Shown in pieces: positions 1 to 34,600 of a DNA stretch of 44,947 bases (the stretch's first letter is position 1; the number at the start of each line of letters is the position of its first letter). A program made the position numbers and the translations under genes. The stretch is from an uncultured delta proteobacterium. Its GTDB lineage: Bacteria > Myxococcota_A > Polyangia > Polyangiales > Polyangiaceae. The notes below the pieces were generated by a model, which was not told the origin of the DNA, ran no database searches, and worked only from the letters and a program-made list of their open reading frames with translations. The stretch covers positions 1-44,947 of the forward strand of contig CAVSWE010000003.1 in NCBI GenBank assembly GCA_963731595.1, written 5' to 3'.

Positions 1-303
1 GACTGATTTTCCATCATCAAATACGCGCTGAACGGCGCGCCTGAACGCCGTCGGCTCCCAATTGGCTCCTAATCGCCGTCGATGTGCGTCCGTCTAGGCG
101 AAGATGGTCAGGAACATTGACCTCTTGGGGCAGTCCCCCTTGCAAAGAATGAGTCAACGTCGGGTCGTCGTCTCCTTGACCATCTATGACTTCCGCGACC
201 TCCGCTCCGCAACAAAGTCTGGGCTCGCTGAGCTTGGGTGTTAGGATTAGGCCCGAGCTTTCGGCGCACACCGCCCAGGGGCCTAAGAATGGAGCGCCAC
301 GCC

Positions 304-1151
304 CTACCAGCGCCGACTCTCGATAATCCGTCGCTGGTCCGGAGTGACGCTAAGGGCTCCGCGAGCGAGCTCGCTACGGAGCGGCTCCTTCAATCCGAGC
401 GAGCTGCGCTTGTCTCGCGCGATCTCAAGAGCCTGCCGCAACGAGTCCTCGTCTCTCGCCGCGCTGAGAAATTCCTGTAGCGGCCAGTCGGGTCGAGCGA
501 AGCGGTCAACGAGTCCGAGGCTCGACGTTCGCATCGGTCCCACTGGCGGTACCAGTACAGCGACGGCAGGTCGTGGCTGATCCATCGCCAGACGTCGTAA
601 GGAAGGTCGTCGCGAGGCGACGCCGCAGCTCGATAGACGTCGGGGTACGACAGGGCGATGAGCGGTGCACCTTCGGCCGTCGGAGTTCGGAACCCGATCG
701 CGAGACGAAACCCGCGCACCGAATTCGAACTCCCGGCGACATTTCGGAAAGCCGACGGAGGCAGCCGCAAGCCATGAGTGCGGCGGGAACGAAGCCACGG
801 CCTCGCCATGCGGATCAAGATGCGCGATCGCGAAGGCGAGACGAGCGGAAGACGGTGGCGAGCGGCGAAGCCAGCCGTCGACGACGCGCGGTCGCGTCTC
901 ACGGTGTCGTCCCATCCTGTGCCAAGCGGCTCGGAAAGGAGGTCCTCGCTCTGATCGACTGCGTCGAGCACCGCCTGCGCCGCATCGCTCCCAGGGCGCG
1001 CGCGACATCGCCAGCGATGTCTTTTGCGCCGGCGGAGAGCATCGCTCCGACGCTGCCGCGCAGGTCCGCTGGGCCCTTTCTCGCGCCAGAGATCGAGGAA
1101 TTCTCGCTGTCTGTCGAGCGGCACTCGCCAGAGGGCGGGAGAGGTAGCCAA
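304..1151 (-). CDS. hypothetical protein, multiply frameshifted; C-terminal part ...VDRFARPDWPLQEFLSAARDEDSLRQALEIARDK... looks like real coding sequence
   Basis: Minus-strand ORF pieces 390..1151 and 304..1209 join into one protein-like reading with frame changes. Arg-rich stretches mark the wrong-frame parts. Confidence 0.25.
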
Positions 1152-1561
1152 CGCGGGCTGCGATCGACGAGGACAATGAGAAGCCCTCGGTGCCGGCCCT
1201 CGAGTTCAAGCGCGGCCGCGGGCCGACGGCATCGCAGCGGTCCCCGAGGATGCCCTCGCCAGCTCGTTCAGGGGCTGATCAGCGATGAGCGCTTGAAGTA
1301 GGTTCGTCGCGTTGTTGCTGTCCGAGGCCCAGAGGGTCCGGGCTTGATCCGGCAGCTTCAACTCGGGGTCGGTGAATGCCCTGAGTACGGGGTCCGCGCG
1401 ATTGAAGAAGGAGCCGTGCGGTGGTCACTGCGGCGGAACGGAACCGCGCCTCTGGCCCGAGAGGTCGAGCTTTAGGCGTCCGCAGTCGTCGCTGGCTTCG
1501 GAAGGATTCACCGACGAGCTCGATCACACGCGATGCGACGACTTCTCGCGCGCCCTCTCCG

Positions 1562-1705
1562 TTAGAGCAGGTCGAACGCCTCCGCGAGTGGCTTCCAGGA
1601 CTCCCGCGGCATCACCGAGTCGGCGCCGTACACCCAGAGAAAGTCTCGAAGGCACCGAGGCCACCGCGCAAATCGGCGACGCCGGCGCGCACCCACGGGG
1701 CCATC
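1562..1705 (-). CDS. small hypothetical protein (MAPWVRAGVADLRGGLGAFETF...VYGADSVMPRESWKPLAEAFDLL), one frameshift
   Basis: ATG at 1705 (minus) just downstream of the gene ending at 1760. A protein-like reading is obtained by joining two frames. Confidence 0.25.
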   Translation of the reverse strand, partial: DGPVGARRRRRFARWPRCLRDFLWVYGADSVMPRESWKPLAEAFDLL

Positions 1706-1759
1706 GGCGCGTAGTGTCCAAGTTCCCAACGATCGTGCCGACGGGAGCGCGCTGAAGCC

Positions 1760-2404
1760 TCAATCGGACGCCAGCGGAACCACCAGCAGATCGAAAGCGC
1801 TGCCGTCTTGTTCGCGCGCGGCGAGCGCCCCAGAGCAGAACCGAAAGCCCCTTCGGAGGCGCGGCCATTGCTGCGACCAAATCGCCATAACCAGGTTCTC
1901 AAACGGTCCCGAGTTCTCGGCGAATAGCACCGCCGTGGACTCAGGTGCGTCGTACAGAGCCTCGAGTAGACCCGCTGCAACGTCCATCGGGAACGATTGC
2001 GGTTGCTCACCGCCGCCGCGGGCGCTGAGCGCAAGCGCCGGGAGTTGGCTTCGTCCGTAGGCCTCTTCGCGGGTCGGCCGACGAAATAGTCCTTGAGGCG
2101 CGATCGAGCCGGCAGGCGTGCCAGGTCGCGAATTGTATCAACAGCGAGTGCGTCCACACGCAGCCTGGACGCTCCATCTCCGGCGCGTACCAGGTGCGCG
2201 CGAGCACGTAGGAACCGACCGCTTCGAGTGGATAGCCGCTCGCGTACTCTCGAATCCTGCGGCGAGCCTCGGACCTGAGAGGTCGCTTTGCACGAGCAGC
2301 GTGCGCTGAACGTCCGCAGCGAGCCTGACGGACGACTGCAACAGCTCATGACCGGAGCGGTACCCGTGCACCGTCTGATGCAGGACAATATTCGGCTCGG
2401 TCAT
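1760..2404 (-). CDS. unknown-function protein, third gene of the GTPase module (MTEPNIVLHQTVHGYRSGHELLQSS...AENSGPFENLVMAIWSQQWPRL...), 2 frameshifts
   Basis: ORF pieces 2138..2404, 2007..2207 and 1760..1987 are all on the minus strand. The start ATG overlaps the upstream stop (ATGA) at 2401-2404. Confidence 0.5.
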
Positions 2405-3281
2405 CCCCAGGCCCCGAGCCGCTGCACCGGGAGGGTGACGTCGTGTGACGTTGACAGGTCATCCACAACCTCCAGACGCTGCGATGCGTGCGTGAGGGCG
2501 CGGAGACGTTCCGCATCCCGGGGTAGCTCGCCACCCTGAGCGCTGATGCCATAGTGCCTGGCCAGTATCCTCTGCGGATTCGACACGAGAAACTGCCCGA
2601 GGAGAGGGAGACGTTCCGCACACCAGTCGCGCGGCGTCTGCCCGCGCCGCGAACGAGGTCCCACGCGGAAACGACGACCGCCAAGTTCAGCACCCGTCCC
2701 GCTCGACGCCAGATGAGGAACTGCAGGAGGTCGACGAGTTGCACCTGCGTTGGCGCTGACGCCGCGTTCCAGATCGTCGGCGTGGGTTCAGCGACGATCT
2801 GCGCTACCGTGGGCGCATACGCGCCACCATCATTGCGAACCCGCCGGATGTGGTCGGCCTGCGCGTTTACGGTATCGATCCTGATCGGCTCGTTGATCTC
2901 GTTCGGATGAACGAAGATGAGCGCGCCGTCCGCTGCGAGAACCAGTTCGTCGAACCCCTTGGTCCAGCGACGGTTGACCCACTGGTCGTTGAACGTCTCG
3001 CCGGCTATGTCGGGCAGAAGCAACTCTGACGTGCCCTGGCTGGCGCGATCCTCAAGGAGCATGCGCACGATGGTCTCGTCTGCCGGCAGCGTCTTGCCCA
3101 CCGGTTCGCACCGCAGCCACGCCTCTCGCAGGCGGTTCAAGTAAGCCCGGTCCCCTGTGAGTTGCTTTACCCGGAGCGCTGAAGGGACGTCCTCCGATTC
3201 GACGATATGCCAGAAGGCGGCGATGAATGTCGTTTTCCCGGACTCTGGAAGTCCAATGACTAGGTTCCGGCGAACGCTCAT
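2401..3281 (-). CDS. Ras-like/TRAFAC small GTPase B (Walker A GLPESGKTT, G3 DIAGET, G4-like SAWD), C-terminal frameshift
   Basis: Middle of ORF 2346..3548 plus C-terminal piece 2401..2664. Motifs were read directly. The start ATG (3279-3281) overlaps the upstream TGA. Confidence 0.6.
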
Positions 3282-4296
3282 GGCCGCGTTCCCCCAAGGT
3301 GATCGAACTCTCGCTCGGATGAAATGACGTTGAGCGGCGGCGGCGGTGCGAGTCCGGCTGCGTCCATCCAGGCGCCGAGGAGGTCGTTCAGACCGTACGC
3401 GAAGTCGAGCTCGGAGTTTGTCGGCCGCGCTGCGACGTGTGCAAAGTGAACGTGCGGCAACTTCGAAGCGAACGTTGTAACGAAGCTCTCTTCTAGTTCG
3501 GCGACGCGGGTCTGAGCGCGCCCGCCAGACCGCACGATGAGGTCCCACTTGGTCGTCAGCAGGGTCACGTGCGTGTGACCTCGGAGGACGTCAGCATCCA
3601 GCAGGCTGCGAACAACGCCACGCGCATGCGCGTACGTCTCAGCGTGATTGTTGTCGGCTAGCTTCGCCCCGTTGAGCATCACGACGAGGTGGTCCGCGCG
3701 TCGCAAGAACTCGTATTTCGCGCACTCGTCCGACGAGTCCCTGACCGCGTCATAGAGCTCACCGGACATGTCGCCGAGGAGTAGGTTGGTGCGCGAGGAC
3801 ACATTCCAATCGAAGAGTGCCAAGTGCAAGAATCGGAACCCCTCGCCAGGCTTAGTGCGTTCAGTGTCCGGGATCTCGCGCCCCGACGTCATTCTGGCGT
3901 CGTGGCAGCGCTCTTCGAACGCGGGTAGGGTTTTCGACCCTGCGAACGCAAAGCGCCCGACCACTCCTTCCTGGAATCGCTCGTACAGGCTTGCGATGAG
4001 GGTCGTCTTGCCGCTGCGCTGCTCACCGGCAAGTATTCGACGCGAGCCAGACCCTCGCGGGCGACCTCGTACACCGTTGAGGGATCAAACGCTGTTCCCG
4101 CCGGGAGTTCGACGTCATCCGGCGCTCTCGCCGGTTTCTTGGGCGTCGACGCTTGCGCGGAAGCTGGCGGGACCGCCGGGGGCGCGGGCGCGGCCGCGCC
4201 CTCCGCGAGATAATGCGGGCAGCCCGAAGGCGGCACGAAGTTTTCGAGGCAGGACCCTCCCCCGCCTGTGCGAGCGGGCACCCACGCTGCTTGCAT
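3278..4296 (-). CDS. Ras-like/TRAFAC small GTPase A (Walker A GEQRSGKTT, G3 DMSGEL, G4 TKWD), N-terminal frameshift
   Basis: ORF 3278..3964 carries the G3 and G4 motifs. Walker A lies in the same frame upstream, with no in-frame start. The N-terminus comes from ORF 3889..4296 through a +/-1 shift near 4030. Paralogous to GTPase B. Confidence 0.55.
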
Positions 4297-4309
4297 GACG
4301 GGGGCATCT

Positions 4310-5446
4310 CTAGGCCTTGTTGGTCTTGACCACGCGGGTGAACACGCTCTCGAGGTAAGCCTGCATTGCAGACGTCACAGGCGCGTGGGAAGCATCCGGA
4401 AGGGCTGTTGACTTGGTGAACACCGAGATCCAGTCCTTTGCGTCCTCGGTCGCTAGGGAGTTCTGAACAGCCGTTAGAAGGGGCGTCAGCTCTCGCGCTG
4501 CTCCAGGAGGGCACGCGCGGAGCCACTTCGTGCGCCAGTCACGCGGCGCCGCATTCACCGCGTCGCTGAGCTGGATGGTGGTTGGGGCCTCGCCGCTGCC
4601 CGTGTGCGATTTGGCGGTTGCGGCCCCGGTGACTACGTCGCGAAGGAGGCGATCAAGAAGCGCTGGCGCTGCGCGAGGCCCCGGAACGAGCTGCGTCAGG
4701 TCGGAGAGTTCCTTCGGAGCAACCAGGCAGGTGGCAGGCAGCCCTAGAGCGCTGAACGGTTGACCCAGGTCGCGGCTGTAGCCCGAAAAGACCCACCAAA
4801 ACATGTTAGACTCCTCGCGGAGCGCATCGAGTTCGCCGTAAACATGCGCCGCATGGTCCCGAAGCAGCGTCCCCAGCGCGGCGGTTGCGGCGGCCACCAG
4901 CGCGACGATTGGCTCGGTAGTCTGTTTGTGGTCCGGACTGTTCGTCATCGCCGTTCGGAAGGCTCCGAGAGGATCGTTCTCCTTCAGCTCGATCGGGGCC
5001 GGAACGTCGGGCCGCTGACCGGCAGCACGGACACGAACAGCCTCGTTGGAGAGGTACTGTCTCGCGTAGGCGGCGAACTCGCGAGCGATTCTGTCGCCGT
5101 GGGTCTCCTGAAAGGAAGAGGTAAGGAGGCCCAGGCCGACCAAATCGGCCCGCTGACTCGGGGTCTCCAAGATGCAGACGCTCGTCGCACCCGCCAAGAT
5201 GCGAAGCTCGGCATCATTGTCTCGAGCGGAAAACGTAGTATCCGCGCCCTTTGCCGCTTCCGTAACGGTCATCCGGATCAGGCGTCCGCCGGGCAAGTCC
5301 CGCGGATGAGCCGCACGAGATCCTGGAGCACCGATCCTTTTTCCCATTTGCCCATCGCCTCTACGGCCGTCCACCGCTTCGCGAGCATCTCGCTCGTCGG
5401 CTTGATGGCTGCAACCTGGTACCAGTCCGCGGAAAGATTTGTGCAT
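4310..5446 (-). CDS. alpha-helical protein of unknown function (MTVTEAAKGADTTF...FTRVVKTNKA); N-terminal ~60 codons are frame-ambiguous
   Basis: ORF 4310..5446. A protein-like reading starts at MTVTE (5272). An alternative frame gives ...ADWYQVAAIKPTSEMLAKRWTAVEAMGKWEKGSVLQDLVRLIRGTCPADA upstream. It begins 18 nt after the phosphoesterase stop. Confidence 0.5.
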   Translation of the reverse strand: MHKSFRGLVPGCSHQADERDAREAVDGRRGDGQMGKRIGAPGSRAAHPRDLPGGRLIRMTVTEAAKGADTTFSARDNDAELRILAGATSVCILETPSQRADLVGLGLLTSSFQETHGDRIAREFAAYARQYLSNEAVRVRAAGQRPDVPAPIELKENDPLGAFRTAMTNSPDHKQTTEPIVALVAAATAALGTLLRDHAAHVYGELDALREESNMFWWVFSGYSRDLGQPFSALGLPATCLVAPKELSDLTQLVPGPRAAPALLDRLLRDVVTGAATAKSHTGSGEAPTTIQLSDAVNAAPRDWRTKWLRACPPGAARELTPLLTAVQNSLATEDAKDWISVFTKSTALPDASHAPVTSAMQAYLESVFTRVVKTNKA

Positions 5447-5464
5447 GGCGGGTCTCGTCAGAGT

Positions 5465-6779
5465 TCAGGCGTAAGGGTTTGGTTCAGGGGCGGGGAGCGA
5501 GTGACGGCCCTCGACCTCCATCCAGAGACGCGGCAGAAGGCCGCGCTCGGCGGCGCGCTTGAAGATGCGTTGAAAGAGGACTCGATCGGGCACGCCCTTG
5601 TCGTCGTCCTGCAGGAGATCCATGGTGTTCGCGAGCTCTACCCGAACGTGAAACGGCAGCGTCAAGAACCGGTAGGTGAGCCTTCGATCTGGGTTCATGG
5701 CTGGCACTCGTGGCGTGTGAGATGTCTCGGGGTTTGGCATTGGACCTGCGCTGCCGCTTGGACCAATAGCAGGCTCCGTCGACGCCAGCGTCGCGGGAGG
5801 GTGCCAGGGATCGAGAGGTAGCGGGATTGTCCGCCCGGCGAGGGGTTCGACGGTATCCGCCCGAAAACGACGGGACGCATCGTGCCAGACGCGTGCGTGA
5901 ACCGTCGTGTCGAGGAAGCGCTGAGTGCCTTCCGTTCGAACCGCGCAGCAGATGACATTGTAACGCGGCTCCCACCGCCTCTCCGCTCGGTCAGGATGAA
6001 CGGCGCCCGCAGTTACGCGCAGCGCGTCGTTCAGCCGCTGGAGTCGCTGCGCGTGCTTGTGCCCGAAGAGTTGAACGGTCGCGCGCGCGTTCAGCAGGTC
6101 CTCCACAGCATCGTGGTCGACGAGCCAGTCCGGCGGATGATGGCAGAGGGACACGTAAGTAACGCCCGGCTCTCGCGGAAGCGCGTGCGAGACGTCTCCG
6201 ACGACCAGTTTCTTCGGGTCCTCATCGTCAAGACGCGACGACACCAGCGCGGAGTTGAATCCGCATAGCCGGAGGCGGGAGCCATCGTTCAACGGCAGGT
6301 CGGCATGCCAGGCGAGACGCTCCGGCCCGACCTCGCATGCGTACTTCGCGGCAAAATCGTTATACGCCGCAACCGGTTCGAACAACGCGTTCGCGCCGAT
6401 TGAATCGCGTTGAATCCGTTCCGAGCTTCGCTACGTCGGCACGAAGGCGTTCGTGCAGAGCCTGGACCGTCTCGCTGCGGTCGATGACCGTGCGGTCAAC
6501 GTCGTGGTTTCCCGGGACGGTCCACACCGCCGCGCCAGGGCACTCGAGAACGCCGCAGATGCGCGCCAGCCAGGCTATTGCAGCCTCGTATTCCTTCGCG
6601 TCTCCCGCGAATGCGATGTCCCCCGTCACGATCACCCCCGTCGCGACGCCTACCTCATGACGCATAACCCCCAGGTCGAGTTCCAACTCGTTTCGCACGT
6701 CCTGGTCGACATCGTACCCGCCATCAATTCGGCGTCTCTGGAAGTGAATGTCCGAGAGATGAACGAGTACAAGCGCCAT
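5465..6779 (-). CDS. calcineurin-like metallophosphoesterase with C-terminal extension; one frameshift near 6380
   Basis: N-terminal piece (ORF 6360..6842) has SDIHF (DxH), GDIAFAGD and VPGNHD. C-terminal piece (ORF 5465..6385) has GHKHAQ. An SD-like GAGGA lies 7 nt before the ATG at 6779. Confidence 0.65.
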
Positions 6780-7054
6780 GATGGGTCCTCGGGGACTGGA
6801 CGTCGTAGTGTACTCCAACTCGAGCGCGCCGGGATCGGCCATCAGCTGGGCGATTCCGGCGGTCGCAACTCGATCAGCAATCGTACGACGCGTGATTGTT
6901 GATCATCGGCGCCGCTTGGGCGCCATTGGCACCACCATGGTGCGTGCAGAATCTCCGCGGTTCGAGGCGGGTGCCGATCTCGTCGAAGACGATGAGCTGC
7001 CCGTGCCCCATAGACCCCGTACGGGATCGCCTTCCCCTGCGTCGTCACTCGTCG

Positions 7055-7780
7055 TCACTGCGTCGCGACGTACGTCACCTTGCACTTCTCGACTTCGATG
7101 CACTCGTAGAAGAGCGAGACATCAATGGTCGCCGGCGCGCTTGATGAAAAAAACGTCTCAAGTCGGGGACGATTACCCGGCGTCAGCATTGCGAACCAAT
7201 CCGAAGGAGGCTCCTCGATTCCGTGTCGCGTGTGCGGGACACTGCGTGCGTCGTAGAGCAGCGTCGTCGAACGAGGGTCCGGTGGCACCGGCAAGCTTTC
7301 GGAGGTCAAGAGATGCCCACCTTTGTTCTGGAGCGTGAGCCAGACTTGCTCCCAGCGAGCGAGAGGGCGCGAGACGTGAATGAGGAAGAACGCACGCTTC
7401 AGCTCGCCTTGGACCTCCAGGGCGCCGTGACGGTACTCGTTCGGGCGCGCTCCTGCGTCCGTCTGCACGACGTAGCTGAGAAAGTTCGTGACTACCGGAA
7501 CCTTGACCATGTTCGGGAGGTCACGAAATGCAGCGTAGTCTGGCACGGTGACCGCCGCGTCCGGCTTCGCCATCGCGTGCACGACCTGATCCGCGATGGC
7601 CTTTCGATCTGCCGACGAGAGCGTCGCCACCGCTTGTGGGCGCGGCGGTGGCTTCGGCTCAACCGCGATGATCGATGCGAAGACTCCAGCGATACTCGCG
7701 ACGACGACGAGCGCGAAGTTGTCGGCTAAGAACCGCTGCCACCGCGAAGGCTGACGTCGCACTTCATTCGCCGGAGCCAT
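7055..7780 (-). CDS. membrane-anchored hypothetical protein (single N-terminal TM helix)
   Basis: ORF 7055..7780 with non-Arg-rich composition. Hydrophobic segment FALVVVASIAGVFASIIAV near the N-terminus. Confidence 0.5.
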   Translation of the reverse strand: MAPANEVRRQPSRWQRFLADNFALVVVASIAGVFASIIAVEPKPPPRPQAVATLSSADRKAIADQVVHAMAKPDAAVTVPDYAAFRDLPNMVKVPVVTNFLSYVVQTDAGARPNEYRHGALEVQGELKRAFFLIHVSRPLARWEQVWLTLQNKGGHLLTSESLPVPPDPRSTTLLYDARSVPHTRHGIEEPPSDWFAMLTPGNRPRLETFFSSSAPATIDVSLFYECIEVEKCKVTYVATQ

Positions 7781-8300
7781 CGCGTCCTTTCGTCGGCGAT
7801 CGGTCCGATGGTGCTGCAGCGGTGGGAGTTTCGACGCCCGGAAGGTCGATCGGCGCTGCAGCCGTAGCGCTCAAAGAATCCCTCGGTGCTGCGACGGTCG
7901 TAGCCGCCGAAATGATGTTGCTCCATCCGGCTATTCCAACGCCGATGAGGAGCGAGAACACGCCAGCGAGCACGACCCTGATGCTTCGTTCCGTGACCCC
8001 TCGCTTTCTTGTCGGACCCTCAAGGTAAGGATCGATAATGCCGAACACGACGCAAAGCACGCCGGCCTCCTCAAAGAACGCGGCTGCGGCCGTGTTTAGC
8101 TCGTGCGGAAACCAGTGGTACTCAGAGGCGGCGACGGCGGCGGCCATGAGGACGAAGAGTACTCGGCCCAACGGGAAACGCTGCTTCGTTTCCTGCTGCT
8201 GTTCCGTGGACGGGTCAGCCGGTTCGGTCACGGCCGACACAATCGTCGCACTGTGGCAACTTGCCAAGTGTTTCGCGTCGCGGATCATTCTGACTTCCAT
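7764..8300 (-). CDS. integral membrane protein (2-3 TM helices), unknown function
   Basis: C-terminal ~180 aa of ORF 7764..8642 is protein-like (VLFVLMAAAVAASEYHWF..., VVLAGVFSLLIGVGIAGW). Start taken at MEVRMIRD (8300). The upstream part of the ORF is Arg-rich and spurious. Confidence 0.4.
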   Translation of the reverse strand: MEVRMIRDAKHLASCHSATIVSAVTEPADPSTEQQQETKQRFPLGRVLFVLMAAAVAASEYHWFPHELNTAAAAFFEEAGVLCVVFGIIDPYLEGPTRKRGVTERSIRVVLAGVFSLLIGVGIAGWSNIISAATTVAAPRDSLSATAAAPIDLPGVETPTAAAPSDRSPTKGRDGSGE

Positions 8301-8559
8301 GATCTCGGTCACTTTGGGCCCACCCAAGCTGAGAGCATCGGAGCCATCAAAGAGTTCAAGGCGGAGCGACCTCGACGAGACGGCGCGCAAGATGGGCGTG
8401 GCGCTCAATACCGTGCAGCGGTGGCGGGCGAAGTTCGGCGGGATGACCGTGAGCGAGGCCCAGGAGAAGCGGCGGCTCAAGGACGAGGAATTTCGCCAAC
8501 GGTTCTTGCGCATCGCGGGGCGCCTCAAGGGAGGGCGGCCGAAGGTTACGGCGGAATGA
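8299..8559 (+). CDS. small HTH DNA-binding protein (..LDETARKMGVALNTVQRWRAKFGG..)
   Basis: C-terminal third of ORF 8038..8559. HTH-like helix pair. Its stop overlaps the next start (ATGA at 8556-8559). Confidence 0.35.
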   Translation: MISVTLGPPKLRASEPSKSSRRSDLDETARKMGVALNTVQRWRAKFGGMTVSEAQEKRRLKDEEFRQRFLRIAGRLKGGRPKVTAE

Positions 8560-8840
8560 GCGGTCGTCGCTCGACGACGGACATTCGCGCGTGGGCGCCC
8601 ATCGCGCGCGCGCTTCACTTCGAAGAGTCCACGCTCCAGCACGCCAGCCGCGATCGCATCGTGAGCGCCACCCTCGCTTTCCGCGTCGCCCGTCTCGCGA
8701 AGGTGAGCGTGGACGACCTGCTCGCTGGGAAATTCCCGTCACCCGGGACGTGCCCACGATGCGGGTACAACCCGCGCGAGCGCGCCACGATCACGTACGC
8801 CCCGCGGATGTCGCAGAAGCCGCCCAGGCCACCGACGTGA
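8556..8840 (+). CDS. small HTH plus zinc-ribbon protein (RIVSATLAFRVARLAKVSVDDLLAG...CPRCGYNP)
   Basis: Last 95 codons of ORF 8103..8840 starting at MSGRRSTT. Translationally coupled to the previous gene. Confidence 0.4.
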   Translation: MSGRRSTTDIRAWAPIARALHFEESTLQHASRDRIVSATLAFRVARLAKVSVDDLLAGKFPSPGTCPRCGYNPRERATITYAPRMSQKPPRPPT

Positions 8841-8898
8841 CTGACGGGCGCAGTTGCGCGCGTCTGCGCCTCTCTGGCAGCAATAGCGTTTGGCCGAA

Positions 8899-8966
8899 CA
8901 CGTTGACATGCGATATTTCATAACTTCCTGCCGCTTCTCCAATTCCAAAACACACGTTGATGTGCG
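8899..8966. repeat. imperfect direct repeat CACGTTGA(C/T)(A/G)TGCG x2 (8899-8912, 8953-8966) in the lower-GC spacer 3-prime of integrase 1
   Basis: Read directly. Candidate att core or arm-type site. Confidence 0.3.
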
Positions 8967-9006
8967 CGCTTGGGCGCGACTACATACATCTGTGCGGTTC
9001 GGGACT

Positions 9007-10083
9007 TCACGAGAGAATCGCCTCGTCTTTCGGGTGCCTAATGTCCAGCAGCTTCACTGCATCTCTGGGCACGTGCGGCGCGAGGTGCGCGTAGCGCTGC
9101 GTCATCGCGAACGAAGCGTGGCCGAGCAACTCCTGGATCGTGCGCATCGGGACGCCGCGCATCGCGAGGTGCGACGCGAAGGTGTGGCGGAGCACGTGCC
9201 AGTAAACGACGCGGCCGAGCTTGGCGTTTGCACTCGCCCGTCGACACGGGTGCTTGCACTCGTGCTCGAGCAGCATGTTGCCCGTCGCGTCGCAGAAAAC
9301 GAACGCGCCTCGTTGATGGTGGTGCGCCTTGAGCGCGTTACGCGCGTCATCGCTCAGGGGGACGTCGCGGAAGCGGTTGTTCTTGGGTGCCTTCAACTTG
9401 CCGTTGATCGTCGCGTTCTGGCGGACGTGGATCACTCCCCTTTCGACGTCCACGTCGGTCCATCGCAGCGCGCGTAGCTCGCCGATGCGAAGCCCCGTCC
9501 GGATCGCGACGGTGAACATACCTCGCCACGCGGCGTCCGACATCGCGATGAATCGCTCGGCCTCCTCGAACGTGAGAAAGTCGACGACCTGCGGCGGAAT
9601 GCGCGGCATCTTCACCGTCGGTACCACCTCGAGCTCGCCGTATTCCTTGGCCAGTGCGAGCGCCTTCCGCAGAACGGACAGGTGGTTCGCGACGGTCTTC
9701 GGGGCCAGCGGCCCCTTCCCGGGCACCACCTTCATCTTCTCGGCCTTGTACGCTTCGACGTCGCGTGCCCCGATGTCGCGCAGGTACATCGGCCCAAAAA
9801 ATTGCAAAAGGTGAACCTCAAGAACCTTTTTCTTTCGGTCGATCTCCGCGGGTGAGTTGTTCGCACGGGCGTAATCGCGGAACTCATTTTTCGCGAACTC
9901 GGCAAACGTCTTCTCGGACTTACCACCCAGACGGTATTCGCGTTCCAGGATTTCGCGCTCGTATGCGGCCGCCGCCTTCCGGGTCTGGATGGGGCTCTTT
10001 CTCCTGATGCGCTTTGGCCGTCGCCCTGGGAGCCGGACGTAGACGTCGACCCACACCTCGCCTCTGAAGTTCGTCACTGCCAT
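9007..10083 (-). CDS. int: tyrosine recombinase / phage-type integrase
   Basis: C-terminal catalytic signature ...HVLRHTFASHLAMRGVPMRTIQELLGHASFAMTQRYAHL. N-terminal arm-binding-like region VTNFRGEVWVDVYV. SD GAAGGG before the ATG at 10083. Confidence 0.9.
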   Translation of the reverse strand: MAVTNFRGEVWVDVYVRLPGRRPKRIRRKSPIQTRKAAAAYEREILEREYRLGGKSEKTFAEFAKNEFRDYARANNSPAEIDRKKKVLEVHLLQFFGPMYLRDIGARDVEAYKAEKMKVVPGKGPLAPKTVANHLSVLRKALALAKEYGELEVVPTVKMPRIPPQVVDFLTFEEAERFIAMSDAAWRGMFTVAIRTGLRIGELRALRWTDVDVERGVIHVRQNATINGKLKAPKNNRFRDVPLSDDARNALKAHHHQRGAFVFCDATGNMLLEHECKHPCRRASANAKLGRVVYWHVLRHTFASHLAMRGVPMRTIQELLGHASFAMTQRYAHLAPHVPRDAVKLLDIRHPKDEAILS

Positions 10084-10282
10084 TGTCGTGCCCTTCATTC
10101 AGCAGAGCCAATACGTCGCTGCGGCGGAACCGGAGCATCCGCGGACCGAGCCGCGTCGGATGCAGCCTCCCAGCCGCAATAAGGTCGTAGAGCTTCGTTC
10201 GCCCGATGTGGAGCAGGTAGCACGCCTCACGCGTCGTCAGGGCGCGGTCTTGCGACAATTCGCTCTCCCGCGGCGCTCTCAT
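10084..10282 (-). CDS. xis: excisionase/AlpA-family HTH protein (3-prime end uncertain, overlaps int start)
   Basis: N-terminus of ORF 9920..10282: LTTREACYLLHIGRTKLYDLIAAGRLHPTRLGPRMLRFRRSDVLALL, the classic excisionase-family HTH. Confidence 0.55.
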
Positions 10283-10329
10283 GTCGAGTCATCCCGCAAT
10301 GTGAACTTTGAAGTCGAGCGAGCCGTGTC

Positions 10330-10557
10330 AACGCGCTGCCAACGCTTCCAAGAGCCCATCATTTTGGCTGACATTGCCGACATATTGATTCCTTATTACT
10401 GCTCGAAGTAATAGAATCGAGATGTCCCAATGCGCTGATAACTCTGCGTTATACAATCACTCCGACCATTTACAGATCTTGCCCTGCTTTCCGCACATAA
10501 CGGCCGCTGGCGCACCATCACGATGTCGGTGGCAACGCGCTGCCAATGGCAGGCTGC
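10330..10557. promoter_or_regulatory. direct repeats CAACGCGCTGCCAA (10330-10343 and 10544-10557) flanking an AT-richer tract with an 8-bp-stem palindrome TTATTACT-GCTCGA-AGTAATAG (10394-10416)
   Basis: Read directly. Lies immediately upstream of the xis-int pair. Candidate arm sites or operator. Confidence 0.3.
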
Positions 10558-22556: not shown

Positions 22557-22614
22557 GTAACCGTACGGGGATGGACGCCGTGCGCGTTCGCCGCCGTCGC
22601 GATTCACTGCGGGC

Positions 22615-22935
22615 ATGAGGCACACGGCGGAGTGGTGGGCGAAGCGGGTGGCGGAGATTGCGCAGGCCGGGGACGCGCGCGCGGTCGCGCGGCGGCACGG
22701 GGTGAAGGAGCGGACGCTGATCTGGTGGCGTTCGGAGCTACATAGGCGAGCACGGGAATCGAGCCCGCGCCTGTTGCCGGTCGTAGTTCGGGCCGCGCCA
22801 GATCGCGCACCTGCGGTGCAGGTGGATCAGCTCGAGGTCTTCGTCGAGGTCGGCGCCGCGCGCATGACCCTGCGCGGCGCGGTGAGCGCCGAGCACCTCG
22901 CGGCGATCGTGTCGGCGTCGGCGCGCGCGTGCTGA
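22615..22935 (+). CDS. tnpA: IS66 TnpA (Orf1)
   Basis: Identical to 11515..11835. Confidence 0.75.
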   Translation: MRHTAEWWAKRVAEIAQAGDARAVARRHGVKERTLIWWRSELHRRARESSPRLLPVVVRAAPDRAPAVQVDQLEVFVEVGAARMTLRGAVSAEHLAAIVSASARAC

Positions 22936-23294
22936 GCCTCGGGCCGGGCGTGCAGATCGTGCTCGCGAGCGAGCCGATCGATCTGCGCCGCGGGCACGAC
23001 GGGCTCGTGACGCTGGTTCGCTCGCTGTGGAAGGCCGATCCGTACAGTGGGACGCTGTTCGTGTTCTTCGGGCGCCGCATGGACCGCGTGAAGATCCTGT
23101 TCTTCAGCGCGGGCGGGTTCGTTCTTTATTACAAGCGCCTCGAGCGGGGGCGCTTCTCGATGCCGCGCATCCCCGAGGGCGCCTCCCAGGTCGTGCTCGA
23201 CCCGGCCTCGCTCACGATGTTGCTCGACGGCATCGATCTTCGCGCCGTGCATCGCGCACCCATGTGGCAGCCGGCCGCGAGAGAAAGTGCATAA
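22929..23294 (+). CDS. tnpB: IS66 TnpB (Orf2)
   Basis: Identical to 11829..12194. Confidence 0.85.
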   Translation: MLSLGPGVQIVLASEPIDLRRGHDGLVTLVRSLWKADPYSGTLFVFFGRRMDRVKILFFSAGGFVLYYKRLERGRFSMPRIPEGASQVVLDPASLTMLLDGIDLRAVHRAPMWQPAARESA

Positions 23295-23336
23295 AGGGGA
23301 TCGACACGGCACGCGCGTCATGATCAAAGCTGTCTG

Positions 23337-24790
23337 TTGGTTCCGCCTCCCGACGACGACAACGAGCACGGCTGCGCCTGGCGCGATTACGCCAAGCACC
23401 TCGGCACCCAGCTCGAGGTGATGCAGGCCGAGATGGAGGTGCTCAAGCGCGCCTTCGCCAAGCGCTCCGAGAAGATGGGCAAGATGCCGAGGGTCCCGCG
23501 ACCTCCGCGCACGCCCGCGGAGGCCGCGGACCGCCGCACCGAGCAGGCGCTGCTCCGCGCCGACAAGGTCGTCACCGAGGAGAAGACCGAGCCTGTCCCC
23601 GCGGAGCTCAAGAAGTGCAGCCTCTGCGGCGGCACTGACTTCCGCAGCGTCGGCACGGGCAAGCCGTCGGAGATCTACTCCTACGTCCCGGGTTATTTCC
23701 GACGCGTCGTCCACACGCGCGAGGTCGTCGCGTGCCGCTGCGGTGGCTGCGTCGTCACCGCGCCCGCGCCCGAGCGCTGGGCCGACAAGACGCGCTACGA
23801 CTCGAGCTTCGTCGCTCACCTCGTCGTCTCCAAGTGCCTCGTCGTCACGCCCCTCTACAGGCTCGAGCAGTCCTTCGCGCGCCTCGGCATGCCCGTCGCG
23901 CGGAGCACCATGAATGATCTCTTTCGCCGAGCCGGCCTTAAGCTCGAGCCGCTCCGCGCCCCGCTCTTCGAGGCAATCAAGAAGGACTTCCTCGTCCACG
24001 CCGACGAGACCTCCTTCAAGATGACCAAGCAAACCTCGAAGGCGTTCATGTGGGCCTTCGTCGGCCGCAGCCTCACCGGCTACCGATTCGACCTCACGCG
24101 CAGCGGCGACGTACCCATCGATGTGCTCGGCGACTCCACCGGTGCCCTCCTCTGCGACGACTACCGCGGCTACGACCCGCTCGTGAAGAAGGGAAAGCGC
24201 CAGCGGTGCGGCTGCCACGCCCACGCACGGAGAAAGTTCTTCGAGGCCGGCGACGTCCCCGAGGCGAAGGAGGCCCTCGAGCTGATCGGCGGCCTGTACT
24301 GCGTCGAGCACGAGGCCGAACGACAAGAGATCGTCGGCACGCCCGAGCATCTGGCGCTGCGCCGCGAGTACGCCCGTCCGCTCTTCGTGCGGCTCCTGCT
24401 GCTCGCGCGCGAGATCCGGCGCGCGCACGGGCCCAAGACGCTCCTCGGTCGCGCCGCGCGTTACACCTGGCACAACCAGCGCGAGCTCGGACGCTTCCTC
24501 CGCGACGTGCGCATCCCGCTGGACAACAACCCCGCCGAAATGCCCTCCGCGTCGTCGCGCTCGGCCGAAAGAATTTCCTCTTCGTCCACAGCGAGGACGC
24601 AGGCAAGGAGCTCGCGCTCCTCTACTCGCTCGTCGTCTCCTGCACGCGCGTCGGCGTCAACCCGGTCGAATACCTCGCCGATGTCCTCGACCGAATCGAC
24701 AAGACTGCCGACGACCACTACGTCGACCTGCTCCCCGATCGCTGGAAGCCACCACCCAAGCCTGGTCCGGCGACGATTTTCGACCCGTAG
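23337..24790 (+). pseudogene. tnpC: IS66 transposase TnpC with a 1-nt deletion (A4 to A3 at 24538-24540) causing a frameshift
   Basis: Copy 1 has ccgccgaaaatgccc; copy 2 has ccgccgaaatgccc. ORF 23337..25145 runs through the element end into flanking DNA. The C-terminus resumes in ORF 24050..24790. Confidence 0.8.
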
Positions 24791-24842
24791 CGCATCCTGG
24801 GACTGCGGGATCTGCCTTTTAGGCCGATGCCCGTACGGTTAC

Positions 24843-25145
24843 GCTTCAACCGACGTCCAGTCGGAGTGGCTCGGTTGGTATAACTGCACGTGTACGAGTT
24901 GCGCTTCGCAGTGCTCGTCGGCGTTCTGCTTTGCGACCACGCCCGCCGATGCGGGCAAAGACAGCGGACCTCCGACGTGCGCGCCAGATGGATCGGGATG
25001 CTCAGTGGACAGCCAGTGCTGCACAGGGCTCTGCTCAACGGGCGACTCGACTTGCGGCTGCGTTGACGACCTCTCGACGGGTTGCGGGGTCGATACCGAC
25101 TGCTGTCTCTCAACCGACACCTGTGTCAATGGCATCTGCCAGTAA
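24843..25145 (+). pseudogene. 5-prime-truncated paralog of the secreted Cys-rich protein gene (...DVQSEWLGWYNCTCTSCASQCSS...DSQCCTGLCSTGDSTCGCVDDLSTGCGVDTDCCLSTDTCVNGICQ*)
   Basis: About 90% nt identity to 14396..14735. Starts exactly at the IS66 copy 2 right end. The C-terminal module is intact here. Confidence 0.5.
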
Positions 25146-25220
25146 TCTGGGGTCTAAGAGGGTATCTGGGTGATGAGCGACAATTACTCTTGCAGGTTGC
25201 GTCGATTTGCGGCGCGATGA

Positions 25221-26369
25221 TCACCGCGCCGCGCGCGGGTCCGCTGCGTTCTCGATAGCCGCAATGCCCTTCTCCGTCGCATGGGGCGCGAGGTGCATGT
25301 AACGCTCCGTCTGAATCAGCTGCGCGTGCCTGGCCAATGCCTGGATCACGCGCGCGGGCACGCCCGCCATGGCGAGCCTGGTAATGAACGTGTGCCGAAG
25401 GACATGGACGCGACCCGTGACCGGCAGTCCGGCTTGGCTTTCGACGCGTGCCATCCAGTACGCTACGTCGTTCGGCAGCAACTCCTTGCCGCCGTCCTTG
25501 CAGAGCACACGGGGGCCGATCTCCGGAACGCTTTGCAGCACGTTCGCAAGGCGCGAGGTCATCGGCAGCCACCGTTCCTTGCCGCCTTTGGTCTCGCTCT
25601 CAAAGGGAATGGCGCCATTGTGCCAGATCGAGCGCCGCACGTAGATACGCCCGGCCGCGAAGTCGATGTCGCTTCGACGCAGGGCGATGATTTCGCCACG
25701 TCGAAGTCCGGCGTCACACCCGAGCAGCACCAGCGCGTGGTATCGCACGTCCAACTCCGCTGCGGCGACGAGCAGGCGACCGAGCGTCGCATCGTCGTAA
25801 AACATTGCTGCCTTGTCGTCGTCGACCTTGGACCGCACGATGCGACACGGCATCTTTTGGAGCACGCCGAAATCAACGGCCGCATGTAACAGTCTGGATA
25901 TCTGGCAGAGCCTGAGGTTGTGGGTCCGCTTATTCGATGTCGGCTTCGCAATGCGACCGTGGAAGGTGGAGTATCCTCCCTCCGTCCAGCGTCGGCGAAG
26001 CAGCGAGATCTGAGCATTTGTTACCTCGTCCAGGTGCAAGTCCCCGACGAACGGCAGCACGTGTGAATGGAGTTCACGCTCGACGTTGTGGATGTCCGCC
26101 GCTTTGCGCAGTCGCGCGCGGAGATCGGCTATGAACGTCAGCGCGAACGCCGAGACTGTGGGCGGCTTTGAGGGCTTCGGCAAACGAGCAACGCGCCCGG
26201 CTTCGCGCAACTCTGCTTCCCGTAGATCGCCCCACCTTCTCGCGGACGCTGCGGACGTCGCGGTGATCACACGCCGGTCTCTGCACGCGGTCAGATCTGG
26301 CCAGCGAAAATAGACCTCGACCTGGTATCTACCTCCTTCGTCCTTCCACGGTCTCACGTTGACGGTCAT
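25221..26369 (-). CDS. int: tyrosine recombinase / phage-type integrase
   Basis: HVLRHTFITRLAMAGVPARVIQALARHAQLIQTERYMHL. N-terminal MTVNVRPWKDEGGRYQVEVYFRW. SD AGGAGTGG before the ATG at 26369. Confidence 0.9.
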   Translation of the reverse strand: MTVNVRPWKDEGGRYQVEVYFRWPDLTACRDRRVITATSAASARRWGDLREAELREAGRVARLPKPSKPPTVSAFALTFIADLRARLRKAADIHNVERELHSHVLPFVGDLHLDEVTNAQISLLRRRWTEGGYSTFHGRIAKPTSNKRTHNLRLCQISRLLHAAVDFGVLQKMPCRIVRSKVDDDKAAMFYDDATLGRLLVAAAELDVRYHALVLLGCDAGLRRGEIIALRRSDIDFAAGRIYVRRSIWHNGAIPFESETKGGKERWLPMTSRLANVLQSVPEIGPRVLCKDGGKELLPNDVAYWMARVESQAGLPVTGRVHVLRHTFITRLAMAGVPARVIQALARHAQLIQTERYMHLAPHATEKGIAAIENAADPRAAR

Positions 26370-26612
26370 GACCACTCCTGTTGCTTCGGACGCCGCGTTC
26401 ACGCCGCGGCCGCGAACCTCGTCGAATGCACGGGGCGTGCCGACTCGTGACCTTCTCCGAGATTTGCACGTATAGGCATCTATCGGGGTGTTACGCACTC
26501 CGCTACATCCCGGTGCGCCCCAGAAACTGTGGCCCGTAGCCCGCCGTTTCGTGTTCGACCGGACACTTCTCGCCATGTTGCGAGTTGTAGCGGATTGCGC
26601 TACGTTCCCCGC

Positions 26613-32709: not shown

Positions 32710-33060
32710 TTGAGATTTTCGGTTCTTGGCGTACTCGCCGGGGCGTGCACCGCTTGCGGCTACACGGTCTCGACCCTTCCCGAAACGGGCGTTCCTAGCA
32801 ATCTCGAGAGCGTCACGCCCGCCGTCGTCTCCCGCGTTCCGCCCCCGCCAGGCTCGAAAGAACTCGGGCGCGTGAAAGCGGAGAAGTGCGGCTACGGCGG
32901 CGTTGCCGCGTGCCACGAGCGTCTTGGAGTGGAAGCCGCCGCGCGGTTCGGAGCGAGCTACGTGCAACTCGTCGACGACGGCACGCACATTACCTGGTGC
33001 GCGTGGGCGGCACCGTATTGCGCGGGCATCGCGTTTCGAACTGGCCAGCCCGCGCCCTAG
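32710..33060 (+). CDS. putative small lipoprotein (TTG start; signal MRFSVLGVLAGAC), 3-prime end runs into the IS1182-like inverted repeat
   Basis: ORF 32710..33060. Its stop TAG lies inside the IS terminal repeat. Confidence 0.35.
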   Translation: MRFSVLGVLAGACTACGYTVSTLPETGVPSNLESVTPAVVSRVPPPPGSKELGRVKAEKCGYGGVAACHERLGVEAAARFGASYVQLVDDGTHITWCAWAAPYCAGIAFRTGQPAP

Positions 33061-34600
33061 CAGTCCGTTGACGAAACGGTTGTCGGGCTCACGCGGCACG
33101 TTCGACGGCGCGTCGATGCCTCATGGCCGGCTGGAGAAGCGTGCCAACGAGCTGCCCGGCGCAGCGCGCGATCGATCGTAGAGCGATCCAAAGAGGGCCG
33201 CGAAGACGATGCCAGCACGGCGGCCGCCGCCTGCCGCGGCGTTCCGTGCCCGAAGAGAGTTCTCATGACGAGTCCGAGGTTGAGCGCGGCAATGTGAGCG
33301 ATGTAACGCTTTCGGACATTGTCGCGACCTCGCAGTCGGACGCGACGGTGCGCGCCCGTCTCGCAGGCCAGAGCGAACGTGCGTTCGATTCGCTCCCCTC
33401 GCATTCGCAGCAGCTTCTTGCCCTTCGCTCGACGCACCCGCTTGCGGTTGTCGTGAAAAGCCTCGCGCCCGAGCATGCCCCCCTTGTCGCCGAATTGCCG
33501 CTGCCCCTTCTGGTCGGGGACGGGGATATACGTCCGATACTCGGCGCGCCTCAGTTCCAGAAGCAGTTCGATCTTGTGATAGCCCTTGTCCGCGACAACC
33601 TCGAGGGTCGGGCGCGATGCAACGGTTGGCGCCGCCGGTGGCGGGGCGTCATCGTCATCGTCGTCGCCGTTCGAGGCCGTGCGGACCGCATCAGCGTTCT
33701 CGCGCGCCGCTTCAAGGCTCGGGCGTAGCGTCGCGGTGTCCGACTCCTCGGCGCGGTAGATCTCCGCGGCGACCACCGCGCCGGTGTCGAGATCCACGAC
33801 GTGCTCAGCCTTGTAGCCGAGCCGCGTGCGCCCGTCCTTGAGTCGCACGATGCGAGCATCCGCGTCGGTCGGAGACTCCCAGTCGCGGTTCGAGGTCTTC
33901 TTGCCCGTGCGTGCGCGATCCATTCGCCGCGCGTCTTCCACCGTCGGATTCTCGATGCCCTGCGCCTCGCACAGTTTCTTCAGGTACACCGCGTAATCGT
34001 CGCCCGTGTCCTTGCGCACGATCGTCTTCATCGAGGCATCCGCTCGGAGGTAGGTGGAATCCACGCCCGCGACCTTGCCCCGCAGCAGTCCCTTCGATTC
34101 CACGATCCCCAGCACCAACCGGAACACCTCGTCATAGACCTTGCCGTCGAGGCGCGTGCGCATCCGCGACAGGCTCGAATGGTCCGGCACCCGCTCTTGG
34201 ACCTGGCACCCCCAGGAACGTCCGCAGCGACAGCGAGTCCGCACACCGCCACTCCAGACCTCGCTCCGACTCAATACCTTCGAAGTAGCCGACGAAGAGC
34301 ATCCGGAAGTACACGCCGGGCGGGATCGAGGGGCGTCCTGGCTTGTCGGCCGCCTCGAAGTACGGCGCGCAGAGCTGCTCTACACGCATGTCGAACTTCG
34401 CTTCCGACAGCAGCTCGTTCAGCTTCTCGTAGAACCGGTGGCCCGGCGATCGCGCCAGCTCCGGTCCCGCCAGCCACATCGGCGCCTGCCGATCCTCACG
34501 CCGACCCATCGACATGAGGGCAGCCTATCCATCCAGCCCCGATCCGTCGATCCCCTCTACCCCCTCACGCCGTTATTTCAACGGGCTGCTAAATCAGCGA
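33050..34600 (-). mobile_element. IS1182/IS5-family insertion sequence with imperfect terminal inverted repeats (CTAGCAGTCCGTTGACG / TCAACGGGCTGCTAA)
   Basis: IRs at 33057-33073 and 34578-34592. They enclose an IS5/IS1182-type transposase. Confidence 0.65.
33057..34515 (-). pseudogene. IS5/IS1182-family DDE transposase, one frameshift near 34200
   Basis: N-terminal DUF772-like piece (HRFYEKLNELLSEAKFDMRVEQLCAPYF...GVYFRMLFVGYFEGIESERGLEW) in ORF 34132..34515. DDE body in ORF 33057..34274. Confidence 0.75.

Follow-up and report, generated by a model that had tools for sequence, protein, structure and literature searches.

A predicted GAP1-N1-type double-GTPase conflict operon, frameshifted as assembled, in a Polyangiaceae contig

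The GAP1-N1-containing GTPase-centric system is a predicted prokaryotic conflict system described by Kaur, Burroughs, Iyer and Aravind (eLife 2020; PMC7159879). It consists of GTPase-associated protein 1 (GAP1), the helical protein GASH, two DO-GTPases, one of which has an N-terminal zinc ribbon, and a variable effector. An operon of this kind is described here from a stretch of 44,947 nucleotides of an uncultured delta proteobacterium in the family Polyangiaceae (GenBank assembly GCA_963731595.1, contig CAVSWE010000003.1, positions 1 to 44,947 of the forward strand). The whole stretch is called the window below.

DO-GTPases belong to the TRAFAC class, and their signature is the glutamate of a DxxGE motif in Walker B (PMC7159879). 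Effectors of GAP1-N1 systems are coupled through the adaptor domain GAAD, through EAD1, or by fusion to GAP1. A calcineurin-superfamily phosphoesterase is the commonest effector and is frequently coupled via GAAD. In the published prediction, a switch made of the GTPase pair and GAP1 shifts its conformation when an invader is sensed and deploys the GAAD-recruited effector, probably at the GAP1 C-terminus. This anti-invader role is a computational prediction. An effector that can be swapped on a constant core is regarded as a hallmark of conflict systems. The families GAAD, GASH, DO-GTPase1, DO-GTPase2 and GAP1-N1 all derive from the same paper (PMC7159879).

A related group, the GAP1-N2-type systems, shares the core of DO-GTPase and GAP1. 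Its own features are a GAP1-N2 domain, a protein with FNIII repeats that replaces GASH, themes of tubulin, HSP70 or kinases, and membrane association. GASH and the FNIII component are mutually exclusive between the N1 and N2 systems (PMC7159879).

Family assignment, layout and relatives

As judged from its sequence, the operon is a canonical GAP1-N1-type double-GTPase conflict system, of the kind already described in 2020. It is made of five co-directional, tightly coupled genes on the minus strand, at 304-6779, in the order (5' to 3') phosphoesterase-GAAD, GASH, DO-GTPase2 with the zinc ribbon, DO-GTPase1 and GAP1. The assignment to the named system follows from the Pfam matches together with the zinc ribbon, the DxxGE motifs and the matching architecture. 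All components and their order are those of the system of Kaur et al., including the position of GAP1 downstream of the GTPases. There is no difference in architecture; what sets the window copy apart is that it is frameshifted as assembled.

The gene models come from a frameshift-aware dynamic-programming alignment of intact homologues to the window DNA, which gave five colinear genes. As assembled, each gene is scattered over at least two reading frames (stop-to-stop translation of the minus strand, 1700-6900). The reconstructed full-length proteins were scanned against Pfam and judged by its curated gathering scores. All five pass the score of a named family, and the assignments are not borderline (Table 1). 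GAP1-M and GAP1-C have no separate Pfam match in the reconstructed GAP1. None of the GAP1-N2 features, the FNIII protein included, was found at the operon, where Pfam gives GAP1-N1 and GASH only.

Table 1. Features of the operon and its surroundings in the window, with Pfam scores of the reconstructed proteins against the gathering cut-off
Feature	Coordinates	Strand	Length, frameshifts, remarks	Profile match
Calcineurin-like phosphoesterase + GAAD	5465..6779	minus	~437 aa, coding 6779->5468; 1 frameshift ~6425	Metallophos, 27.4 bits vs 21.5
GAAD (GTPase-associated adaptor domain)	5510..5686	minus	effector residues ~365-423	GAAD PF19976, residues 365-423, 42.5 bits vs 23.6; E = 6.8e-11
GASH (GTPase-associated system helical) protein	4310..5446	minus	~378 aa; frameshifts ~5431, ~5280	GASH PF19994, 61.2 bits vs 27
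DO-GTPase2 (GTPase A)	3278..4307	minus	~341-343 aa; frameshifts ~4254-4271, ~4037	DO-GTPase2 PF19993, 143.5 bits vs 27
Zinc-ribbon-like CxxxxC...C-x9-C segment, DO-GTPase2 N-terminus	4216..4295 (approximate)	minus	reconstruction	
DO-GTPase1 (GTPase B)	2401..3281	minus	293 aa; one frameshift, 1-nt deletion at 2639	DO-GTPase1, 222.2 bits vs 27
GAP1 (GTPase-associated protein 1, N1 type)	304..2404	minus	~705 aa; 21 frameshifts, in-frame stops 0	
GAP1-N1 domain	2095..2383	minus	GAP1 residues ~8-104	GAP1-N1 PF20012, residues 8-104, 107.4 bits vs 27
Tyrosine integrase	9007-10098		upstream of operon	Phage_integrase, 9e-34
Excisionase-like gene	9920-10282		upstream of operon	HTH_17
IS66-family copy A	11457-13748	plus	99-99.7% identity among three copies	
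TacA-like antitoxin	17059-17718	plus		weak match
IS66-family copy B	22557-24847	plus	99-99.7% identity among three copies	
Second tyrosine integrase	25221-26576	minus	451 aa	
DDE_Tnp_1 transposase	33057-34274	minus	405 aa	
IS66-family copy C	40639-42420	minus	99-99.7% identity among three copies	

An earlier reading of the same DNA, made without database searches and called the sequence-only reading here, had recognised five co-directional minus-strand genes and placed them at 1760-6842. The count and direction stand; both ends of the span have moved. A supposed small protein of ~214 aa ending at 1760 turned out to be the N-terminal third of the ~705-aa GAP1 when the DNA was aligned, with the frameshifts bridged, to the homologue P0121. 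GAP1 runs from an ATG at 2404 to ...IIESRRW at 307, with its stop codon at 304-306, and ends 304 nt from the window edge. At the other end, homologues of 437-438 aa back a phosphoesterase start at 6779 (MALVLVHLSDIHF) in place of 6842.

The close spacing had mostly been read correctly. A gap of 18 nt separates the phosphoesterase stop (5465-5467) from the GASH start (5446), and ATGA stop/start overlaps lie at 3278-3281 and at 2401-2404, the latter joining DO-GTPase1 to GAP1. The start of GTPase A had been set at 4296 and is most likely 4307 (MPPSCKQRGCP...), 2 nt past the GASH stop. The ATG at 4296 lies 11 nt downstream of this position and is in frame only after the frameshift at ~4254-4271. 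A scan of 1-7400 for sigma-70 promoters and terminators gave no signal above shuffled expectation.

The individual proteins carry the residues expected of their families. In the phosphoesterase, the motifs SDIHF, GDIAF, GNHD, HHPP and GHKH are present, in line with those that had been quoted for it. The reconstructed protein is colinear with an intact homologue in locus L002 and 75% identical to it, and its catalytic residues are invariant in 22 homologues (D10, H12, G53-D54, G90-N91, H213-H214, G239-H240, H242). The effector profile matches the phosphodiesterases GpdQ, Rv0805 and Icc (E 6e-8 to 2e-4) and the nucleases Mre11/SbcD (E 3e-5 to 1e-4). Reconstructed GASH is 85% identical to an intact protein of 378 aa (P0242), and a search for its homologues returned 7 proteins.

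The two GTPases are paralogous, and all the G1, G3 and G4 motifs previously quoted were found again: GEQRSGKTT, LLLGDMSGEL and TTKWD in GTPase A, and GLPESGKTT, LLLPDIAGET and VSAWD in GTPase B. Both have the Walker B glutamate (GDMSGE in DO-GTPase2, PDIAGE in DO-GTPase1). Among 77 homologues of DO-GTPase2, the P-loop G100-K101-T102, G183-E184 and K254-x-D256 are conserved, with G183 and E184 at 95% or above (>=95%); in DO-GTPase1, D91, G94 and E95 are invariant. Intact 343-aa versions of DO-GTPase2 occur in loci L084 and L085. No combination of profile match and conserved context places the GTPases in the housekeeping families Era, EngB, MnmE or Der.

The N-terminus of DO-GTPase2 has four cysteines (C-x4-C ... 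C-x9-C) followed by a low-complexity linker. Its reconstruction, MPPSCKQRGCPLxTGGGGSCLENFVPPSGCPH, was aligned to the L002 sequence MSVSCKQAGCP...GNCLENFVPPTSCPH, in which the cysteines are conserved. The zinc ribbon is thus a reading of the sequence, with no profile match to ZnR itself, and it makes DO-GTPase2 the counterpart of the ZnR-bearing DO-GTPase of the published system (PMC7159879).

Three intact close relatives have the same five genes. The closest is a JGI contig (P0002) with 88% identity, whose proteins measure 438, 378, 343, 292 and 705 aa; the others are L002 (73% identity) and L001 (65% identity). With GTPase B as query, 502 homologues were found. Among 185,579 species genomes, one per GTDB species, 270 relatives were confirmed by tblastn, in more than 10 phyla, the best hit being 45% identical. 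Loci were fetched for 80 of these, and counts of gene order cover 83 loci. The phyla of the 80 include Acidobacteriota, Verrucomicrobiota, Planctomycetota, Chloroflexota, Myxococcota, Proteobacteria, Elusimicrobiota, Nitrospirota, Spirochaetota and others. The closest relatives are mostly from the first five of these, whereas the 2020 paper stresses proteobacteria, bacteroidetes and spirochaetes (PMC7159879). Culturable carriers are Budvicia aquatica DSM 5075, Pyxidicoccus fallax DSM 14698, Hansschlegelia quercus and Devosia pacifica KCTC 32437. The intact Budvicia operon occupies positions 4492-10860 of locus L080. Because a search with its profile yields 3,366 clusters (E <= 1e-3) out of 1.84 billion representatives, GAP1 is regarded as a rare but sizeable family.

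The exact order of first gene, GASH, DO-GTPase2, DO-GTPase1 and GAP1 is found in 59 of the 83 loci. A further 6 have the same order with split genes, and most of the remainder are truncated at contig ends. The gene that varies is the first: it is a full-length phosphoesterase in 41 of the 83 loci, and in about 25 it has another N-terminal domain without a Pfam match, followed by GAAD. As far as these sequences tell, four constant core genes with a swappable effector domain on GAAD are the pattern expected of a conflict system.

Some side observations concern these relatives. The uncharacterised, Pfam-negative N-terminal domains carried on GAAD are 230-1140 residues long (L081, 2403-6020; L017, L011, L048, L022, L027, L039). 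The operon of L001 adjoins an AbiEi/AbiEii toxin-antitoxin pair, a SNF2-family helicase and an integrase (4674-6298, 1720-4710, 14959-15912), a typical defence-island neighbourhood. A complete five-gene operon is also present in a metagenome-assembled genome (MAG) of a Micrarchaeaceae archaeon (L068, contig DATLRQ010000097.1), which represents either cross-domain transfer or a binning error.

Frameshifts in the window copy

All five genes are hit by frameshifts, 27 in total: one in the phosphoesterase, two in GASH, two in GTPase A, one in GTPase B and 21 in GAP1. It is likely that these are errors left in the consensus of a long-read, probably metagenomic, assembly, and that the organism itself probably carries an intact system. 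Single-nucleotide deletions are the typical residual error of a long-read consensus.

The reconstructed genes show few other signs of damage. There are no nonsense codons among the 705 reconstructed GAP1 codons, no large deletion was found, and the reconstructed proteins are fully colinear with intact homologues. GAP1 aligns end to end with the 705-aa P0121, with 545 of 707 positions identical once the 21 frameshifts are bridged. Evidence at the DNA level is provided by the Illumina soil-metagenome contigs L003, L084 and L085, which match the window at 95-99% identity. The frames that they carry are open, except for one frameshift of its own in L085 GAP1. Compared with these contigs, the window has about 24 single-base deletions and a few insertions, exactly where the protein alignment needs frameshifts, and the GAP1 indel positions are reproduced against L085.

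Substitutions relative to L003 and L085 favour synonymous sites and third codon positions. The ratio of nonsynonymous (pN) to synonymous (pS) differences is 0.23-0.27 against L003. Against L085 it is 0.30 for DO-GTPase2, 0.35 for DO-GTPase1, and 0.15, 0.37 and 0.23 for the three segments of GAP1. Read from these comparisons, there is purifying selection between the window and the near-identical contigs. Likewise, at almost every conserved GTPase position the residue in the window is the consensus one. The G2-G1 stretch differs from that of L084 by five indel events, of which three are frameshifts, and by just 21 substitutions. Since 27 independent recent frameshifts are biologically implausible with so few neutral substitutions, assembly error is favoured. 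The IS66-family copies of the window provide further evidence for such error. Copy A has intact tnpA, tnpB and tnpC, and relative to it copies B and C have transposase-breaking single-base indels (A4->A3, AA->A, T->TT), the same type of lesion as in the operon.

Alternatively, the operon may be a truly dead pseudogene cluster on a degenerating mobile island, its frameshifts being real mutations. This is considered unlikely, and several facts nevertheless speak for it and weigh against consensus error. The damage touches every gene, and mobile-element debris, including the broken IS66 copies, lies across the window. Close relatives assembled from Illumina reads are damaged as well. In L084, an insertion sequence (a DDE_Tnp_1 gene and an IS21-type pair, 2648-4417) sits inside GASH at the equivalent of window position 4456, and in L085 (3543-3607) and L086 a 1-nt deletion splits GAP1 into 505 + 198 aa. 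The system is thus naturally inactivated in the lineage of L084, L085 and L086. Moreover, the density of frameshifts is very uneven, at about 10 per kb in GAP1 and 0 in the 1.1-kb integrase and in IS66 copy A, and other open reading frames (ORFs) of 1-1.5 kb are intact in the window, so that uniform sequencing error cannot explain the pattern. Decay is, however, hard to reconcile with the synonymous bias of the substitutions (pN/pS 0.15-0.37), with the colinear, nonsense-free reading of GAP1, and with the five indels per 21 substitutions against L084, which far exceed the neutral-decay expectation. Nearly all events are 1-nt deletions, and they are densest where co-occurring strains diverge most, in GAP1 codons 201-483 (pS 0.25).

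Among the related loci, several from long-contig MAGs of the MFD... series (L012, L014, L025, L035, L051) have operon genes split into 2-3 ORFs, much like the window, which hints that assemblies of this class often contain indel errors. A plot of GC content by codon position over the whole window had a weak GC3 signal and was too noisy for mapping frameshifts.

Function and the proposed switch

Taken as a whole, the locus is probably best explained as a GAP1-N1 double-GTPase conflict operon that works through the switch proposed here and whose frameshifts are consensus errors. In the proposed mechanism, the two paralogous GTPases would pair into a heterodimeric GTP switch. Docked on this switch, the longin-like GAP1 N-terminus would set its nucleotide state, as a GTPase-activating protein (GAP) or a guanine nucleotide exchange factor (GEF), with the invariant Arg80 in the ERPGCVWTH loop as a candidate catalytic (arginine) finger. 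The GAP1 solenoid and GASH may serve as scaffold or sensor, and the phosphoesterase would be anchored in the complex by the GAAD helix bundle. Once an invader had altered the GTP state, the phosphoesterase would be freed or activated, and its hydrolysis of phosphodiesters in nucleotides or nucleic acids would stop the infection or the cell. A phosphoesterase effector under the control of a GTP switch had also been the idea of the sequence-only reading, and it agrees with the published prediction (PMC7159879).

The part given to GAP1 is drawn from the AlphaFold model of P0121, which is 77% identical to the window GAP1 (pLDDT, the predicted local distance difference test, 93.6; pTM, the predicted template modelling score, 0.82). 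Residues 7-120 form a longin-like module of beta-beta-alpha-beta-beta-beta-alpha topology that corresponds to the Pfam GAP1-N1 region. It is followed by a second alpha/beta region, to about residue 235, and by an all-helical solenoid of about 460 residues. Invariant residues cluster in the beta4-beta5 loop (E77, R80, G82, C83, V84). A Foldseek search of the whole model against the PDB is dominated by the C-terminal solenoid, for which it finds weak ARM/HEAT-like similarity, and does not probe the N-terminal domain. A Cys-His peptidase reading of the invariant motif RPGCVWTH was rejected, as the fold search gave it no support.

One region of GAP1 stands out in the comparison with L085. Codons ~201-483 (window ~960-1800) have pS 0.25, pN 0.094 and pN/pS 0.37, and the GTPases and the GAP1 N-terminus have pS 0.01-0.05, being about 10-fold less diverged. 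The pattern points to recombination or variability in this patch, which may be a recognition surface; with such a ratio, positive selection is not demonstrated.

The models also suggest a wider comparison, in which GAP1 would be a bacterial regulator of longin/DENN type and the DO-GTPase pair a Rag-like heterodimeric switch. This is possible, and at present rather doubtful than probable. The predicted fold of DO-GTPase1 is closest to that of Rag GTPases. Longin-domain GAPs supply the analogy for an arginine finger at R80. The comparators are the eukaryotic Rag heterodimer with its longin-domain GAPs (FLCN-FNIP, and NPRL2/3 of GATOR1), the DENN-type Rab GEFs, and bacterial MglA/MglB. All of them differ from the present proteins in having only 6-12% identity with no detectable sequence similarity, in giving empty PDB sequence searches, and in their biological role, and homology is not established. 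Unlike Rag GTPases, the DO-GTPases have no visible roadblock domain for C-terminal dimerisation. Bacterial and eukaryotic GTPase-regulator modules might nevertheless share ancestry. DENN modules were earlier regarded as specific to eukaryotes (PMC3521125), and the 2020 paper mentions none of longin, DENN and roadblock (PMC7159879). The model-based likeness of GAP1 to longin/DENN regulators and of the GTPases to Rag is the only element that goes beyond the searched literature, and it is a testable lead, not a result.

Two other explanations of the operon's role have to be weighed against a conflict system. One is a GTPase-regulated housekeeping or signalling module, serving second-messenger turnover or an MglA/MglB-like control of envelope or polarity. 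Bacterial pairs of longin/roadblock proteins and GTPases such as MglA/MglB are indeed polarity regulators (PMC3521125). The effector is as similar to class III cyclic-nucleotide phosphodiesterases as to nucleases, the two kinds of match being about equal and confined to the first ~95 residues. A Pfam scan of 119 flanking ORFs from related loci found that many are ordinary metabolic or envelope genes (transporters, MurJ, MlaD). No experimental paper was found that backs a defence function for any member, and a full-text search by family names and Pfam accessions returned only the 2020 paper and unrelated work. PADLOC-DB 2.0 has no match for GASH, either GTPase or the GAP1 N-terminus, NCBIfam lacks models for GASH, both GTPases and GAP1, and sequence and profile searches of the PDB gave no entry for the GTPases or GAP1. 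Apart from the MglA/MglB parallel, these points count against a conflict system. A housekeeping role is still rated as quite improbable, given that the distribution is patchy and rare over the 270 species, that effector domains are exchanged on a constant GAAD beside four constant core genes (a hallmark according to PMC7159879), and that alleles diverge sharply between otherwise near-identical strains. The operons are also repeatedly close to integrases, recombinases, insertion sequences, AbiE and BrxL; the same 119 ORFs include 7 integrases, 3 serine recombinases and 2 BrxL.

The other explanation is the one offered by the sequence-only reading, a previously undescribed defence system of two Ras-like GTPases, a phosphoesterase, a helical protein and a small protein. 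Its attraction is that PADLOC and NCBIfam leave the core proteins unnamed, and standard defence annotators therefore give no label. A PADLOC scan, a check that had been proposed with that reading, left the core unmatched. The phosphoesterase alone had matches, both weak: one to the candidate PDC-S60, the other to an effector model for generic endonucleases. The ~250 N-terminal residues of the phosphoesterase also match the NCBIfam DS8/DS9_1 'anti-phage phosphoesterase' weakly; these matches and that to PDC-S60 are far below threshold (73.6 vs 790 bits; 54.6 vs 420 bits). The DS8/DS9_1 and PDC-S60 effectors share the calcineurin-like catalytic domain, and their systems are without DO-GTPases, GASH, GAP1 and GAAD. 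Novelty is nonetheless scarcely credible. Every component belongs to a Pfam family defined from the GAP1-N1 system, profile search thereby assigns the operon to a named system (an outcome that the sequence-only reading had itself listed as refuting it), the architecture was published in 2020 (PMC7159879), and the small protein is the beginning of GAP1.

For the GAP1-N1 assignment, this means that the discovery value is slight: the system, its domains and its predicted logic are published and in Pfam, and the window holds a standard copy in a poorly polished assembly. As long as PADLOC and NCBIfam give no label, scans will keep 'rediscovering' the GAP1-N1 system. Phage-challenge experiments are feasible with the intact operons of Budvicia aquatica, Pyxidicoccus fallax and Devosia pacifica, and a longin/DENN-like GAP1 acting on Rag-like GTPases provides a concrete hypothesis for the switch that can be probed by mutation. 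If it were true, a prokaryotic conflict system would share the logic of Rag-GATOR1/FLCN and DENN-Rab, a longin GAP or GEF on paired GTPases, possibly by way of Arg80. Bacterial immunity would then be linked to the ancestry of eukaryotic small-GTPase regulation.

Genomic setting

The integrase and excisionase-like gene expected at 9.0-10.3 kb were confirmed by profile (Table 1). The description of the island as integrase-bounded holds in part: an integrase lies on the one side that the window covers, and bounding cannot be shown, as the window has no tRNA genes and the direct repeats near the integrase, examined as possible att sites, are short matches at chance level only. The putative membrane-protein ORFs at 7055-7780 and 7764-8642 were considered as members of the system and rejected. 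They have no Pfam or SLATT match, and each close relative has other genes upstream of the operon.

From end to end, the window has the look of a mobile-element mosaic. Its integrases, IS66 copies and DDE transposase fit a mobile or defence-island setting. A direct repeat of 323 bp with 90% identity (14398-14720 vs 24843-25163), next to IS66 copy B and downstream of copy A, may be what is left of another element or of an insertion site that was duplicated.

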